A stretch of 62,101 nt of DNA, filler included, from Basidioascus undulatus (taxonomy: Eukaryota), in NCBI GenBank assembly GCA_000826855.1. It is 4 parts of 4 records of this genome, joined end to end, with 100 filler letters (N's around TTAATTAATTAA, not from the genome) between each part and the next. Parts side by side here need not be neighbours in the genome. Positions count along the whole stretch, not along the records: positions 10,582 to 40,960 come from JTLS01000112.1; 3 more parts are not named here. One strand, written 5' to 3'. A model generated the notes under the pieces. The model was not told where the DNA came from, did no database searches, and was given only the letters and a program-made list of their open reading frames with translations. Position numbers and translations under genes: made by a program. Within the stretch, counting starts at the first letter, position 1; each line of letters opens with the position of its first letter. Shown here piece by piece: positions 10,482 through 51,633 of this stretch.

Positions 10482-10581
10482 NNNNNNNNNNNNNNNNNNN
10501 NNNNNNNNNNNNNNNNNNNNNNNNNTTAATTAATTAANNNNNNNNNNNNNNNNNNNNNNNNNNNNNNNNNNNNNNNNNNNN
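10482..10581. other. Artificial contig-join spacer
   Basis: 44 N + TTAATTAATTAA (stops in all six frames) + 44 N. Confidence 0.98.
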
Positions 10582-20121: not shown

Positions 20122-23100
20122 ATGGAGCCAGCCGGCGAGAAGACGCCTCCGGCCGAGCAGCAGCAGGAGCCGCAGGCGCTCCCAACTTCGCAGCCCATGG
20201 TTGCTACCGGTAGCTCCGAGACGGAGGGCAGCTCGCCCGAGCGTACCCGTCGCGTGCAGTGGAGCGAGGTCGAGAAGCACGACGCCGCGAGCGTCAAGGA
20301 GAAGGAGGAGGAGCCGCAGGTAGACCGTAAGGTGCTGGAAGACCTACGACGGTGTGTTTGCTACTTCATCGTTGCTTTGGGCGTGCTTTGGGCGCCGTTT
20401 GGGATGTGGCTATGGGGGGGGAGCTCGGCTGCGGGACGGTCAGTTATTAATCCGCCTCCGTCTTCGCAGCTCACTCTTCTCCGCGTCTGGCCAGCCTGTG
20501 CCGCACGGCGGTGGCACGCTGCCGAGTGACCCAACGCGGGCTGCTGAAGACCATGGCGTACTCGACAATTTTGCGGGCGCAGATTCCGAGTTTATGATTC
20601 CTTCGGGTGAGTCCTCATGCTTCAGGCCCATCATTCCGCTGGTCGCTGATCCACAATGATCTGGATAGGGGAGACCGAGGGCCTTCCGTCGCTTGCTGCC
20701 CGTCGGCGGGCCACCAAGTCGAGCGCTGATAACATCGTTTCCCGCAAGTTCCGGTCGTTCTTCGGCTCGAAGAAGAAGAAGGAGGGCCAGATGGCGAAGG
20801 AGGGCACGGACGTCGAGGCGCAGGGCGACGACGTGTCGGACGAGGAGGACCTCACGCAGGAGGACAGAACCGTCAACCAGCCCACGAGCGTCCTAGGCAG
20901 TCTTCTCGCGCTCAAGGAGGCGGATAACTCGTCCGCGAGCACGCCATCGGCGAGCGTGCTCAGCCTTCCCCTTTCCGATGCCGAGAGCAACTGGGAGACG
21001 GACGGCGAGGGGCAGGGGAAGAGCGGAGCCGGGAGCGGAGCAGCAACGCCGCATCTTCCCGAAGGGGACGTCGGGGACGGTGGGTACTATTCTTTGGCTT
21101 GGTCGCTGGCAGGTCAGATGGGTTGAGCTGATGAGCGAGCGCCTTTCAACAGCGACACTCCGTCCGACGACGCCCGGATCGACCACGACTACGCTCGTTC
21201 CGGAGTCGGGCGGTTCCAGCGCCGTATCGATGCGTTCCGGCAAGAGCGGGCTGCACCCAAAAGGTCACCCGGCTTTCCTCAAGCACGGCGCTAACGCGAT
21301 CTCGAGCGCCGCTCACAGCGCGGTGTCTACGCCGGGTTCTATCGCGAAGGTCGTCGGGCGCCAGCTCGGAAGTGACAAGAAAAAGAAAGAAGACGCTGCG
21401 GAGCGTAAGAGGAGGAAGAGGGAGAAGAAGAAGCAAGAGGTACGCTGCTGCGTCGACTTCTTGTCGGACGACACTGACCGCGATTTGCCGTCTTCTAGAT
21501 CGTGCTTCATCTCGCGGCACTCATTGAGAGGCAGGAGTTCATCATGAAGCTGACTCGTGCTCTTATCATGTGCGCTCATCTCTTCGTTAATCGTCCTACT
21601 TCCTTGCACCTTACTGCTTTCTCACACCTCGAGGATGGATCACCGCAGGTTCGGCTCGCCCTCGCACCGCCTCGAGCAGCTTATCCAGAATACGGGCAAC
21701 TATCTGGAGGCGCCCGTCCAGTGCGTGTTCACACCCGGCGTGATGACTCTTTCCTTCTCGGATCCGGGTACCCGCACGAGCGACACCAAGTTCATCAAGC
21801 AGGGCTCGGGGCTTGATCTTGATCGCTTGCCGAAGACGCACACCGTTTACCGGAAAGTGCTGCACGGCAAGATGACTGTCACGGAAGCTTCTGCGGAGCT
21901 GGACAGCATCGTGCGTTCTTTCCCTCGTTGGTGTTGTGAGAGCTCGTTCGAAACTCAGCTGACGAAGGAGGCGGTGTTAGATGCTCTCGAAGCCGACGTG
22001 GAACGCATTTTGTACCATCATCATCGGCATGTTCTGTTCTGCCTGGTAAGTGACTCGCCGTAGTGTGGTAGCACTGGACCGTATGTTTACCCTGCTCTGT
22101 AGGATTACTCCGCTCGCGTTCGGCGGATCGTTCGTTGTAAATAATTCTCATTGCTCTGAGTTCTTCCACCGCCTTCATTAACCCCTTCATCACTCCACAG
22201 GATGCTCTCGCGGCTGCCATTCTCGGTGGCTTGCTGGTGACTGTGCAGATGATCGTGGCCAAAAAGGTAGATCGCTCTTCCATTGTATCAGAGTTTCGGG
22301 ATTGACAACTGAAATGCTACATTTCCTTGCGCTGATCAGGAGTCGTACAGGCAAGTCGCTCTTCCGTCACATCAGGCGGTCTGTACTGACGCACCGCTGT
22401 GATTTGAATTGGTGCAGCAACATCTTCGAGTAAGGTTTACCAATAACCTCTTTATATTCCAAAGATGCTGACGCGCACTGATTTGGATAGGATCTTGGTT
22501 TCGGCGATCAACTCGTTCATCGCGGCAGCCCTTGGGTATTCGGGGGTCTTCTGCTACAGTGCCGTCGTGGCCGGCAGCGTTGTGCTCATCCTGCCTGGTA
22601 TGTATTCTAACCGCCTCGATTACCAGACGACTCAATCTCACATTCATCTAATCGCAGGGTTCATCATCCTATGCGGGTCCCTCGAGTTGACGTCGCGTAA
22701 CATCTCCGCCGGGTCGGTTCGCATGTTCTATGCCATCATCTACGCTTTGTTTCGAAAGTTACTTTTTCATGTTTTATTGAGAAGAAGTAGTCCTGACAAG
22801 CATAACGACTCTTTTGGCGCGCACAGTGGGCTTCGGGATCTCGTTGGGCTGTGAGCGATTCCCTCCCCCACCGCGCTTCCTTGGATTCTTCAGCTAACCC
22901 ATGTTGCCTAGATTTGTTCTGGTTCCTTATCACCGGCAAATCGGTGCGTGAGACTGTGCATGGGCGACGACAGGAGCAGACTCTGTTCGCGAAGCCTTTA
23001 CTGACTTTATCGCCTTTCATACTTTCGCAGGTGTACGACAGCAACACCCAAGACTGCACGGCGGTATCTCCTCTCAACGACCGTGCGTTTTAGCGATCCT

Positions 23101-24071
23101 CTGTCGAATTGCCATCCTGTCTAACTCGGCGATCGTTCAGCTTCGGTACCATGGTGGAAGCGCGCCGCTCCCGTCAAGTACTACATCCTCTTTGCGCCCA
23201 TGTTCCAGCTGTTCCTGGCGCTCCGTAACCAAACAAGGCTGACGTCGAGGACGCTCTTTGTCATGGTTCGTCCAACTCCGCGAGCAGCAAAGCATGTTCT
23301 CGATAGCTTCGATGCTGACGTTTCCTGCTGCACAGGTGTTCATCGGCTCAGCAGGGCAAGCCCCAACACCTCCTTTAATCTGGATGCCGTCCAGGTGCTA
23401 ACATAAATTCTGCAGGTACACCGTAAACTACTTCGTATCCCACAACAGTCGTTTCGGTGGCCGGTACGAACTCTGACATGGACATGCTCGATGAAGCTGG
23501 AGTTGAGATATTCTCTTCGACATCAGCGCCGACATCTCCAGTGCTTTCGGCGCCTTCACTGTCGGTCTGCTCGGTAACCTTTGGGGTCGCCTTACATCGT
23601 AAGTATTCAGACTGGGGTGGAGGAGATGACCGATCCAACTAATGTCGCCCATCGTACTCTACAGCGACTCCGGTTTCGTCGTCATGACTCCCGGCATCTT
23701 GTTTCAACTGCCTTCCGGCTTTGGTCAGGGCGGTTTGCTGGCGTTTGCGTCGACGAGTAGGTCGGCGTGCTGGCGTAACACTTCTGCTGTATACTCACAG
23801 ATGCGGCGACGCTGCACAGACTCAAGTAGAGACGTGCAATACAACGCCGGACAGGATCTTGGACAGAGCCTCATCGCCATCGCCAACGGTAAGCTGTGTT
23901 TCCCATCTATAATCCGGTCGTCTCGTGGTGTCATCGCGCGTCGTTGGGGTATCTGGCTGAAGGACGTTCTTTCCGGATGCAGGCCTTACCGTCGGTCTGT
24001 TCTTCTCGTCGGCCCTCATCAATCCTTCGTCGAGGAACAAGCGCAAGCAGGCGCATCTGTTCAGTTTCTAG
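20122..24071 (+). CDS. PRM10: Pheromone-regulated membrane protein 10-like (ThrE/DUF1212 family), about 22 introns
   Basis: FIMKLTRALIMFGSPSHRLE, QGSGLDL, FGGSFVD, YSNIFEI, VLILPGFIILCGSLEL...GSVRMFYAIIYALFLGFG, PGILFQLPSG and C-terminal LFSF*. Confidence 0.9.
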
Positions 24072-33789: not shown

Positions 33790-34203
33790 CATGCTAGGCA
33801 TCGTACCCGGCTTTCAGGAGTCCTGCACGCAGTCCTCATCGCACAACTCGCTTCTCATTCTCATCTCACTATGCATCTATGGTCCTGATTCTCCCCAAAG
33901 ATAAAGAACTTCAATGCCGGCCCTTTTCTGCAGTTCTGCCGTATGTGTGGCGCGAGCAGTCAGATTCACATTTGCCAGCTGCACCGACATACGCAAGGGA
34001 TGACGGACGCGATGCGCGATACGCATTGACAGCGTAACATGAGATCAAAGAGTGAGCGGTACGAAAGCGAGTACAAGTATAACAAGGCAATCATAGCGTT
34101 CGAACAAAGCAAAAGAAGGGACAGCTATGCAAGAGTGCGGGGCAAGACAGGGAACCGCATGTGAAGGGCAGAAGAGTGGCAGGAAGAAAAGCAAGATAAT
34201 CCT

Positions 34204-35694
34204 TCACGGCGTCCCCGTCCCCAGCGTGGCCCTCAGATGGAGGTGCGGCACCTGCGTGAGCTTCTCGACCCACGACGCACGCTTCCCAAGCTTCGGGGGC
34301 GGGCGCCGCTCCTGCTCCCTCTCCCTCTCCCGCTCGGACGCGGTTGGCGGAATGGGGTGGGAGACGGACCTGCTCCGCGCGGGGAGGGACGATCTGCGCG
34401 GGGGGGCAGCTGACGGCGCCGGCGCGCGCGGGCCGGGGGTGAAGCCGAGGCCTACGAGCGGTTCAGGCTCGGGCTCGGGCGGCTTCTCGTCGCGCGGGCT
34501 GGGAATGGACGTGGGCGTCGGTGTCGGTGTGCGGCTGCGGCTTGGCGGGAGGGCGAGGAGGACGGCGGAGCCGGTGCGCGGGCACGGCGGGCGGAAGACC
34601 GCCCCGTTTGGTGGAGGGCGGGAGGTGAGCCAGGCCTCGCAGGGCGCAGGGGAAGGTGCACCGGAGAGCGTAGCCGTGGTGCAAGGGGTGAGGGGGGTGG
34701 TCAGCTCGGAGGAGGCCGGCGACGGAGAGGGAGAGGGCGACAGTTCGTCTTCTTCTTCGTCCTCTTCCTCCTCCTGGAAGACCGGCTCGTGCTCGGACTG
34801 GACCTCCTCCGAGGCGACGCGCGGCCTGGGCGGGAGGGAGTCGACCTCGTCGACGCGCACGACGGCCGTCTTCTTCCCGCCCACGCCCCGAAGGCTGCCC
34901 CGCTCCGCCCAGTCCTGCTCCTCCTCCACGCCCTCCAGGAACCCGCGGTCCGCGAACCCCATCCGCCCGGCCTCCTCCATGTCACGCCTGTGTTTGAGCC
35001 GCGCGCCGCGCGTCCAGGGCGGGTCGCGCGTGAGGCCAGCCGCGGCGGTGGCGAAGCATTGCGGGCAGCACGGGCGGAGCGCGAGGATGCTCGCCGCTTG
35101 GAGAGTGGGCGACGTGAGCTGCGGGGGAGGCGCGGCGAGTGAGGAGAGGACTGGAGGGGGCGAGTGGAGCGGCGTGGGACGCCGCGGGGGGAGGGACGAT
35201 GCTCGGCGGAGGTTGGTCGATGATGCGCGTCCACGAGCGCAATCCTCTCCCTCCTCGTCATCCGATGACTCAGCAATCGCCGACTCCCCGCTCCCGCGCC
35301 TCAAGCAGCTCCTCAGCTCGACGTCCGCCGCGCACCTCGGTGGAGGCCCCTGCCCCGGGCGCCTAAACACAGGCACACGCAGCTCCCAGCGCGGTGCACG
35401 GCTCGGGATGAACGCCTCGTCGTTCAAGTTCGCCACGGAGGGGCGCCGCGTCCAGCCGAGCGGGACGGACAGCGTCCGGCTCGAGAGGTGCAAGTCGCGC
35501 GTGAAGGACGCGCGGCGGGCCATCGGCGGTGCGCCGGGGGGGATGACGAGCACGTGCGGGGAGAAGGAGATGTTCTTGTTAGGAGGATGGGAAAGAGGAG
35601 GAGGGGCGCCGGAGGTCGGGGATGTAGGAGGGGAGGAGAAGATGGGGTCGGTCAGGATGCGCGTGGGCGCGGGTGGGGGCGGCGAGGTCGGCAT
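34204..35694 (-). CDS. Intronless Pro/Ser-rich hypothetical protein (about 496 aa) with a CCxxC motif
   Basis: Long GC-rich open frame from ATG 35694 (MPTSPPPPAP...), containing LRPCCPQCF...WTRGARLK. Confidence 0.7.
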   Translation of the reverse strand: MPTSPPPPAPTRILTDPIFSSPPTSPTSGAPPPLSHPPNKNISFSPHVLVIPPGAPPMARRASFTRDLHLSSRTLSVPLGWTRRPSVANLNDEAFIPSRAPRWELRVPVFRRPGQGPPPRCAADVELRSCLRRGSGESAIAESSDDEEGEDCARGRASSTNLRRASSLPPRRPTPLHSPPPVLSSLAAPPPQLTSPTLQAASILALRPCCPQCFATAAAGLTRDPPWTRGARLKHRRDMEEAGRMGFADRGFLEGVEEEQDWAERGSLRGVGGKKTAVVRVDEVDSLPPRPRVASEEVQSEHEPVFQEEEEDEEEDELSPSPSPSPASSELTTPLTPCTTATLSGAPSPAPCEAWLTSRPPPNGAVFRPPCPRTGSAVLLALPPSRSRTPTPTPTSIPSPRDEKPPEPEPEPLVGLGFTPGPRAPAPSAAPPRRSSLPARSRSVSHPIPPTASEREREREQERRPPPKLGKRASWVEKLTQVPHLHLRATLGTGTP

Positions 35695-37329
35695 GCTATG
35701 TAGGTGTTCAAGGAGTGACTGGTGGATAAAGAAAGAATGAAAGAGCGTTTGTGAGTATTGAGCGCGGGAACGGCAAGATGGGGTTTGCGAAGGAGTATGA
35801 CAGGGTACAGGGCAAGGGGCAGACGGGTGAGTCGTACGACCCCTGCCCCCACCGTTCCTCCGTCCAGCCGTCCAGCCATCCAGCGACTTCCGCCAGCCAA
35901 CAGCAACGCTACAGCGGCCCCCGAGGTAAATAACCGACGAAAGCGCACCTCCATGCGTGTGTAGTTTGGGCCTAACCAGCGAGCTGAAGGATGAACAAGC
36001 GAAGACGAGCGGCGCTTGGGCCAGAGGCGTTTGCATCCGAGGAGATGCAGAAGGCGGTTAGAGGCGGTTAGCTATTAGATGAACGTGAGCTCGGTCGTGG
36101 TCGTCGCGATCGATGATGAGCGTGAGGCAGGAATGAGCCGTCGAGGATGTTGATGCAAGTTTGGGGAGATGGGAAGGAGGAGCTACTGCCGAGCGCCTCG
36201 CTTTTCGAGCGTGCAGCAGCGAGGGGCCAGGGCGAGCAAGCGCGAAGCCTTGAGAGTCCGCCTGACCACGCCCGCCGCAAGCGTAAGCTCGCACACGTGA
36301 ATTCACGTACATCCCGTGGCGCATGTGGGCGTGTGACCCGAAGAAAATTATCATGGTCAGTAGGCGACATGCAACGGCGAGAAGGGCACGGTACATGTTG
36401 ATGGTGATGGTCGTGGTTCAAGGAGGATGGAGGATCGGACCCGTCGGGAGACGGCGATGGCGAAGTTCATGAGCCCGAGATCGAGCACAGTCAGCCCGAC
36501 GGGGCCCGACGCTGACGATTCAGGGTCCGTCGAGGCGCTCATACTTGGACTGCTCACATCACTATTTCACTTTTTTCGATCCGTTGTGACCTGCAGCTGC
36601 GTATATTTCTCGCTGAATGCATAGGCGAGAAGGAACAATGGGCTCGCTGATGATAGTGCGTTCGTAGCCACACTTCACTTGCTTTCCCGCGCAAGAGGCA
36701 AGTGTGCGCTTCTGGCCTCTCGCAAGCGTGTGGGCGCTTTCGGCAGGCCATGAACTTCGACTTCGCACTTGACTTGGAAGGAGCAGTTTAGAGATGAGAG
36801 GAAGGCAGATTCAAGCGTCATTAAACGTGTCTCGCCTGCCGTTTTCTTTAGACAAGGCGACTCTCTGTTAACGTCTGGATGCGAAAACATCTACTCATTA
36901 TTGTATGCAGAGGGTTTCCTTCCGCGGGCCGCGACAATATGGGTTCGGGAGAGAAATCGGTGCGCTTGGGCTCGTTCTCGAGCATGTCTTCTTTTTCCGG
37001 TCCCATCCCTTGCGTCCTAGAGGGTATGCAAATGATGAGAGGACAGAGTTGAAATAATAATTTTCTCAAGTTTGTTGACTGCGAAAGCCGTTCAAGAGAT
37101 CGCGTGGCAGCAGCAGGGCGGGCCGACCTGCCGATCAGCGAACGCCTCACACCTCATCGCTGCTTGTCGCTGCAAGGAGGAGTAGATTCCGCAGATTCCA
37201 GGCCCTCGCCCATCAGCAACGACACCGTCAGCCTTGAAGGAATTGTCTTCCACCTGACCATCACAATCGTTGTAGACGCTCACGGTCTGCATTCATCTCA
37301 TCACCAACTCCTCGTTCAGTCGCGACTCT

Positions 37330-40960: not shown

Positions 40961-41060
40961 NNNNNNNNNNNNNNNNNNNNNNNNNNNNNNNNNNNNNNNN
41001 NNNNTTAATTAATTAANNNNNNNNNNNNNNNNNNNNNNNNNNNNNNNNNNNNNNNNNNNN
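40961..41060. other. Artificial contig-join spacer
   Basis: N44-TTAATTAATTAA-N44. Confidence 0.98.
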
Positions 41061-46498: not shown

Positions 46499-47296
46499 TC
46501 GATTACATTTTACAGTTTCCTTTTCCTCCCCGGTCGGTGGGAGCATGGGTCGCCGTGAGACTGAGTGCGGTATCGTGTCCGAAGAAGGTCAGCGCCGCAG
46601 CCCCAGAAGGGACAGGCGGTGCACTGTGAGCGTCTCCTGACTGCGGCTGACCGAGGTGTATTCTTTCCTATATTAACATTGATTTCTACAGATAGACAAA
46701 AGATCACTTTGCTTCAAAACGTGTTTAACATCGCAGGCTGCGCGTGTTATGTGGAACAATGTCGTTATAGCTGCCGAGCGCTCAATTGACAGGAATACAA
46801 GCAAACGGCATTATCGAGCGTCTCCCTGCAGGTCCTACTTTCAACCCGCCTACTCACCCATGTGCATATGCTGAGTGGAGTATTAACTTGGATTCTATCA
46901 GGCGAGATGTCCTAGTTTGTGGCTTGTTGAATGTCACATAGTAGCAGCGGAGGCATTCGGTCTCACCAAGTCGTCCGCCATGTACATAACTAAATTCCAC
47001 AGGCTGAAGTTTATAGTGAATCAGTTCCGTGCTCGCCCTAAAGAGATCAAGCAGAGGTCCTCACAAGGGCAACCAGGCAACGCACGCAGCCTGCTCTCTA
47101 ACCTTTCACTGCACTGGCATGGCAAAGACCCTGATCACGTAACTTTGGGTGGACGTTCTATGCCTTTGTGTGCTTTTCATAATCTTCCTGAACTCGCACG
47201 TCAAACTTCACATGCGGTTAATCATTTTTAGGTACAGGAGTGCCGGAGCACACGACAAACCGATTGAAATTGAATTATCCCACCTGATTGTCAATT

Positions 47297-47383
47297 CTCT
47301 CCTTAGCTCAGTTGGAAGAGCGCGAGACTGTAATGTTAATTTAGTCAATCTTGAGGTCCCTGGTTCGATCCCGGGAGGGGAGA
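47297..47383 (+). tRNA. tRNA-Tyr(GTA) with an intron of about 14 nt
   Basis: Acceptor stem CTCTCCT/AGGGGAG, D-arm GCTC...GAGC, anticodon stem CGAGA/TCTTG, GGTTCGATCCC T-loop, and a TTTT terminator. Confidence 0.95.
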
Positions 47384-47899
47384 AGTTTTACATCGTGCCA
47401 GTCTGCGTGGGCTTGTTTCCTGCCTTGGCACCCTAAATTTCTTGTACGGTCACAAGCGGTTCACATTCCAATAGATATGACCTTTGTTTTTGCTGATCGC
47501 AGGCAATACGGCGCTACTTGTTGATGTCTAGATATCTAGACTAACAGGGCCATCCTGAGTCGTGTATATGCGCATGGTCGGGTACTCATTGAAGCCTAGG
47601 GTGGCTGTTCTACCTTGTCAAGGCCCGGCAGGCGCATTCGGGGACGGGCGCATGTTGAGAGGTTGAAGTAACGGTGCGCCTATCGATTTGGATGAAGTAT
47701 TCAGAAAATGCGGAGACAGGAAAGGAGAAGACCAGACAATGCAGAGAGAGCCAGCTGTGGCGAGATCGGCGCCCTCGAGGGTAATGCTCGAATGCTGGAC
47801 AATACTGAGGGTCGGAAGAAGCAGCGGGAACTAGCGAGGAAGGTAAAGTTCAATGCGGTCTTTGAATTCCTAACGGAGCGCATTAGGTGAAGCAGGCAT

Positions 47900-51533: not shown

Positions 51534-51633
51534 NNNNNNNNNNNNNNNNNNNNNNNNNNNNNNNNNNNNNNNNNNNNTTAATTAATTAANNNNNNNNNNN
51601 NNNNNNNNNNNNNNNNNNNNNNNNNNNNNNNNN
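51534..51633. other. Artificial contig-join spacer
   Basis: N44-TTAATTAATTAA-N44. Confidence 0.98.

Follow-up and report, generated by a model that had tools for sequence, protein, structure and literature searches.

GA-AG introns in other organisms

Introns that begin with GA and end with AG are already known, as rarities, in fungi, plants and animals, and the intron described here would add one case. The curated manual annotation of Ganoderma lingzhi is reported to hold 35 of them among about 92,100 introns (0.038%; PMC11590231), and GA-AG figures among the non-canonical donor-acceptor types of Fusarium graminearum. (Seven non-canonical cases in the latter fungus were checked by Sanger sequencing; the passage that describes the check is silent on whether GA-AG was one of them; PMC3577648.) In the plant Trema orientalis, intron 12 of SYMRK has a donor changed from GC to GA and is described as spliced at about 95% (PMC10668435). 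For animals, the genomes of Eurytemora affinis and Oikopleura dioica are described as rich in GA-AG introns, and a GA donor is reported from human FGFR (PMC7072748). These four reports bear out the premise of an earlier note on this DNA, that GA-AG introns are very rare but have been reported (PMC11590231, PMC3577648, PMC10668435, PMC7072748).

Two further reports concern GA donors that fail. A natural GT to GA change at a donor of AvrPm8 in wheat powdery mildew is reported to have largely abolished splicing (PMC9909948), and the U2A donor mutation in budding yeast is reported to block exon ligation (PMC4836653). As for GC donors, those of F. graminearum are described as continuing with AAGT (PMC3577648); the reported GC-AG rate of G. 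lingzhi is 1.85% (PMC11590231), and for basidiomycetes a rate of up to 3% is cited in a paper on a related fungus (PMC4500085).

The window and its ThrE/PRM10-family gene

The window (the whole stretch of DNA that was analysed, 62,101 nt from the Basidioascus undulatus assembly GCA_000826855.1) is intron-rich fungal DNA of about 57% G+C. It consists of four contigs artificially joined by identical spacers (10482-10581, 40961-41060 and 51534-51633), in each of which TTAATTAATTAA, giving a stop in every one of the six frames, stands between two runs of 44 N. The gene neighbourhood across the spacers is therefore not real, and the assembly is to be taken as a draft. The window is very densely set with short introns (median length about 66 nt). 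Elsewhere in it, a tRNA gene (47296-47384, + strand, 89 nt, 49.2 bits with Rfam), for which ARAGORN named no anticodon, probably contains an intron, and on both strands of 34100-36060, where G+C rises to 64%, there are low-complexity open frames of 547 and 617 residues with no Pfam match.

The gene that harbours the probable GA-AG intron, and two GC-AG introns that it also contains, are placed as follows.

20122..24071, + strand: gene of the ThrE/PRM10 family, 23 exons separated by 22 introns (PF06738 exon matches, spliced alignments, ab initio model)
22351..22417, + strand: GC-AG intron, donor GCAAGT, between an 11-nt and a 12-nt exon (brute-force enumeration against Wallemia, alignment)
23356..23415, + strand: GC-AG intron, donor GCAAGC (brute-force enumeration against Wallemia, alignment)

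Pfam PF06738 matches exons 21650-21909 (E = 3e-14) and 22648-22752 (E = 2.1e-07), and the fungal branch of this ThrE/DUF1212 family is what we take to be PRM10. The C-terminal half yielded no ThrE_2 (PF12821) match in searches whose queries were single exons of only 23-41 residues; over its full length the gene is colinear with annotated fungal members that bear PF06738 and PF12821 together. The nearest proteins in a collection of 5.8 billion are Wallemia orthologues (4 matches, 78-80% identity over one exon). With one of these, the 802-residue P0001, the spliced model is colinear from near residue 6 through to the C-terminus, ending in FSF followed by a stop. Neither this alignment nor the ab initio model shows a frameshift or premature stop through the 22 introns, and the claim that the rest of the gene is intact stands.

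The two GC-AG introns were delimited by the protein. In each, among the variants of the top-scoring excision, only the GC...AG version ends in AG, and the best GT option scores 41 vs 59 at 22351-22417 and 30 vs 51 at 23356-23415. Intron density in the gene is about one per 180 nt, and four internal exons are very short (22340-22350, 22418-22429, 22827-22850 and 23336-23355; 11, 12, 24 and 20 nt); the alignment to Wallemia proteins supports every one of them, and they are of a kind easily missed by ordinary predictors. The annotated Wallemia mellicola orthologue, P0003, is without 17 residues, GFIILCGSLELTSRNIT, that are present in P0001, P0002 and the window, likely through the skipping of an exon in the public annotation.

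Excision of 73 nt restores the family motif

The intron and its surroundings read as follows, all on the + strand.

22658..22753, + strand: 96-nt exon 5' of the GA intron; its 3' end encodes ...YALF and supplies the first base of a split Leu codon (ThrE profile positions 195-229)
22754..22826, + strand: intron of 73 nt, phase 1, with GA...AG ends (excision enumeration, spliced alignment, ab initio model)
22754..22759, + strand: donor GAAAGT, the non-canonical +2 base being the A at 22755 (sequence)
22792..22797, + strand: branch-site motif CCTGAC, in which the branch A (22796) is 30 nt from the 3' junction (sequence)
22824..22826, + strand: acceptor CAG (sequence)
22827..22850, + strand: 24-nt exon coding for (L)GFGISLG (sequence, enumeration, alignment)
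22851..22911, + strand: next intron, canonical GTGAGC...TAG, 61 nt (alignments, ab initio model)
22852..22854, + strand: in-frame TGA stop met on retention of the GA intron (ORFs 22447-22854 and 22465-22854)

The upstream exon ends ...TAC GCT TTG TTT C at 22753, and TG GGC TTC GGG follows 22826. The boundaries, with GAAAGT, CCTGAC and CAG, had been claimed in the earlier note, and both the sequence and an enumeration of excisions uphold them. In the enumeration, every excision that starts within 22725-22799, ends at or before 22844 and leaves the frame open was taken, and its product was scored against three Wallemia proteins. The eight top-scoring excisions are all of 73 nt. Excision of 22754-22826 comes second by mean score (71.3 vs 72.3 for the top one), and it alone among the 73-nt excisions listed ends in AG. 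Skipping of the 24-nt exon was rejected, at a score of 59-63 vs 109.7. A homology-guided spliced aligner restricted to GT and GC donors was forced to invent introns of 36 and 37 nt across the site; given the choice of any donor at a penalty, the same aligner chose GA-AG, and an ab initio gene finder chose it too.

What the excision restores is a motif. All three Wallemia proteins have YALLLGFG at the junction, and 18 of 20 relatives from metagenome contigs have Y-S-L-F-L-G-F-G, the other 2 differing at one residue. The motif region is uninterrupted, and without an intron, in 20/20 of these metagenome loci, which are distant relatives (34-40% identity, mostly without introns in the gene) and inform the protein motif only; the motif is present in 3/3 Wallemia orthologues as well. 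Since the 73-nt excision re-creates what is uninterrupted in relatives, the proposed junction is the one that the protein family demands, and the earlier statement that the joined exons match the family motif holds.

Cryptic canonical sites offer another way of clearing the region. The AAG at 22800 could be paired with a GT at 22749 or 22758, or the CAG at 22826 with one at 22787 or 22790. These are the best GT/GC-AG alternatives in the enumeration (22749-22800, 22787-22826, 22758-22800 and 22790-22826), and all four combinations leave the frame open. They score only 47-49, however, and each would insert 7-12 residues within the most conserved motif of the family. The introns removed would be of 37-52 nt, and just 1/70 of the introns in the census described below is shorter than 57 nt. 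The donors (GTTTCG, GTTACT, GTAGTC and GTCCTG) lack the G at +5 that is found in 66/74 predicted GT donors, and a single CTRAY motif is available to the acceptor at 22800, at 3 nt from its AG. Use of these sites is therefore very improbable, and the view that there is no usable GT or GC donor is sustained: the alternatives add 7-12 residues or lose the motif, with short introns or weak donors.

The GA-AG intron itself is ordinary in its dimensions, its length of 73 nt and branch distance of 30 nt falling within the census ranges (46-120 nt and 9-53 nt, respectively). In introns of the minor, U12-type spliceosome the donor consensus is [AG]TATCCTT, and the branch site lies 10-20 nt from the 3' end. 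The sequence TCCTGAC loosely resembles the U12 branch consensus. Against this, the donor is GAAAGT, and the branch motif, 30 nt from the 3' junction, is the same CTGAC that the GT-AG introns of the window use. A U12-type intron was rejected on donor and branch distance, and its probability is close to nil.

Donor context in an intron census

The setting of the GA donor was judged against a census of 70 introns in the window, 31 homology-guided and 39 ab initio. The homology-guided set consists of the 22 introns of the PRM10-like gene and 9 from a methionine aminopeptidase gene (25.4-27.0 kb, - strand; aligned to P0006 and P0089). Three of the PRM10-like introns lie in the poorly conserved N-terminal part, and two of the gene's introns (23083, 23757) were set by eye against the aligner. 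The ab initio set comes from Pfam-supported genes (Sugar_tr, DUF604, APC1, SDR and WD40). Homologue searches with an exon of the sugar-transporter gene and one of the DUF604 gene gave no matches, and the introns of both genes accordingly rest on the ab initio finder. Because later rounds of self-training of the finder took up antisense models, first-round and homology-guided intron lists were used. A coding-potential scan for further G[ACG]AAG[TC] donors discriminated too weakly for use.

The census donors are 66 GT, 3 GC and 1 GA. The GC donors comprise the two in the PRM10-like gene and the following.

57248-57183, - strand: third GC-AG intron, donor GCAAGC, in a DUF604-like gene (ab initio; no homologue confirmation)

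Reading through this intron meets a stop, and the frame stays open with none of the GT donors. GCACGT at 13535-13471 (- strand) may be a fourth GC donor; it came up in a single run, within an F-box model of low score with an intron that shifts between runs, and was left uncounted. If real, it would weaken the observation on AAG that follows.

AAG occupies +3 to +5 in 4/4 non-GT donors vs 7/66 GT donors (one-sided Fisher P = 3.6e-4), a statistic that takes in one ab initio GC intron and a finder whose non-GT penalty favours a good consensus. The figure for the homology-guided subset, 3/3 vs 4/28 (P = 0.0078), is the safer one, since that penalty biases non-GT picks toward good consensus. It is in this way that weak donors are usually compensated, and the GA donor is no exception: its AAGT at +3 to +6 fits the U1-complementary consensus, which its exon side, TTC, does not. 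The earlier note had called GAAAGT equal to the consensus GTAAGT except at +2. The near-consensus context is there; GTAAGT is not the commonest donor here, accounting for only 4/66 GT donors in the census, and that place belongs to GTGCGT (14/77 predicted donors).

How readily the finder calls non-GT donors was controlled by giving GC, GA and GG each a prior of 2%. It then picked 3 GC, 1 GA and 0 GG in the 76 introns of seven supported genes. Outside the supported genes, in low-scoring or antisense models, GA and GG were picked 4 times each.

The earlier note had also proposed that the intron may point to a spliceosome tolerant at +2. That proposal found no backing in the window: there is 1 GA in 70-76 introns, the GC-AG rate (3/70) is in keeping with published fungal values and not significantly above the 1.85% reported for G. 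lingzhi (P = 0.14; PMC11590231), and the +2 deviation comes with AAG compensation. No special machinery is needed, since all non-GT donors show the standard compensation by AAG. An Rfam search of the window for snRNA genes found none, only a tRNA. A broader form of the proposal would have a Wallemia-related lineage with relaxed +2 discrimination, in which G[C/A]AAG[T/C] donors (4/70 here) would be elevated genome-wide and GA-AG would recur as in Eurytemora and Oikopleura; we regard this as improbable.

The A at 22755

On the reading that we prefer, 22754-22826 is a genuine, ordinary U2-type GA-AG intron, spliced out of an active ThrE/PRM10-family gene; from the sequence, its probability is put at roughly 0.7. 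The ordinary spliceosome would remove it, accepting a donor that is without U at +2 but retains G at +1 and all of AAGT at +3 to +6; a normal CTGAC branch site and CAG acceptor would complete the intron. A GT donor would perhaps be spliced somewhat more efficiently. The U1 5' end is conserved, and with it GAAAGT should pair at +1 and at +3 to +6, that is, at about as many positions as GTGCGT.

The competing view that carries most weight is that the functional base at 22755 is not A. The A could be a base-call or consensus error, or a T>A or C>A change of recent date, specific to the strain or allele, that cripples splicing. (In its mutational version, this would make the PRM10-like copy a null allele so young that decay has yet to set in.) In favour are the draft state of the assembly, with its contigs joined by linkers, and the downstream exons, whose intact state is as compatible with a very recent change as with function. 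The reported consequences of GA at other donors are also in keeping with a crippling change, splicing of AvrPm8 being largely abolished by the natural fungal GT>GA change (PMC9909948) and the second step being blocked in the yeast U2A mutant (PMC4836653). Moreover, GCAAG[TC] donors occur twice in the PRM10-like gene, and C>A in one of these would likewise leave an AAGT context.

Against this stand three considerations. Judging by the census counts, only ~7% of chance hits on donors drawn at random would fall within a G[TC]AAGT context, so that an error or mutation would have had to strike one of the few donors of that kind. No indel or stop errors are found in ~6.5 kb (an estimate) of conserved coding sequence of the APC1, PRM10 and MetAP genes. 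Finally, published GA-AG rates (0.01-0.04% of introns, in the reports as cited) would exceed plausible per-site rates of error or null mutation, a comparison that we infer from the literature and that is not computed on the B. undulatus genome. An exact look-up, in the protein collection, of three ORFs that overlap 22755 (one sense, two antisense) found none; a match to the antisense ORF would tell A, T and C at this position apart. An error or crippling mutation is accordingly held to be unlikely, though worth taking seriously, and a genuine spliced GA-AG intron is favoured because of the ~7% chance of the AAGT context and because published GA-AG rates exceed plausible error rates.

If the GA-AG intron is real, it is a further instance of the major spliceosome accepting A at +2 when +3 to +6 are optimal; by itself it would not point to a changed splicing machinery. 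There is also a practical side: predictors limited to GT-AG and GC-AG would truncate or distort the PRM10-like gene, in which two GC-AG introns and exons of 11-12 nt add to the risk. Should the A prove to be an error or a null mutation, the site is without wider interest.

Comparison with known GA and GC donors

The GC donors of the window (GCAAGT and GCAAGC) resemble the GA donor in that a weak +2 is offset by A-A-G-T at +3 to +6. A C at +2 still pairs weakly, whereas an A does not. The exon side differs too: position -1 is G in all three GC donors but C in the GA donor, whose exon side is TTC, and without that G it is the weaker site.

AvrPm8 presents the same dinucleotide change at a fungal donor. 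It is, as reported, a loss-of-function allele with splicing largely gone, and in this it is unlike a genuine spliced GA-AG intron and matches error or mutation at 22755 (PMC9909948). The GA donors described for Eurytemora, Oikopleura and FGFR, like the one proposed for B. undulatus, are donors of the major spliceosome with A at +3 (PMC7072748). In the two animal genomes GA-AG is described as outnumbering GC-AG, with a conserved AG upstream; the B. undulatus window has 1 GA to 3 GC, and TC upstream of the GA. The FGFR donor, for its part, is said to need a canonical site 6 nt upstream, and the GTs nearest to the GA donor of the PRM10-like gene (at -5 and +4) are poor (PMC7072748).

The GA-AG introns reported for Ganoderma and Fusarium are, like the probable B. 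undulatus intron, U2-type fungal introns with a GA donor and an AG acceptor, rare and scattered in ordinary genes (PMC11590231, PMC3577648). They differ in the evidence behind them, which is transcripts for Ganoderma and Fusarium and homology only for B. undulatus.

Trema SYMRK, as described, differs in being a plant gene, in that function is established by complementation together with RNA-seq, and in that the ancestral state is known from relatives. What it shares with the B. undulatus case is a lone GA donor within a gene that is normal in other respects, with GC donors also in use in the gene or lineage (PMC10668435). Given such GC donors, the comparison suggests that the GA donor may have been reached from GT or GC by one substitution.
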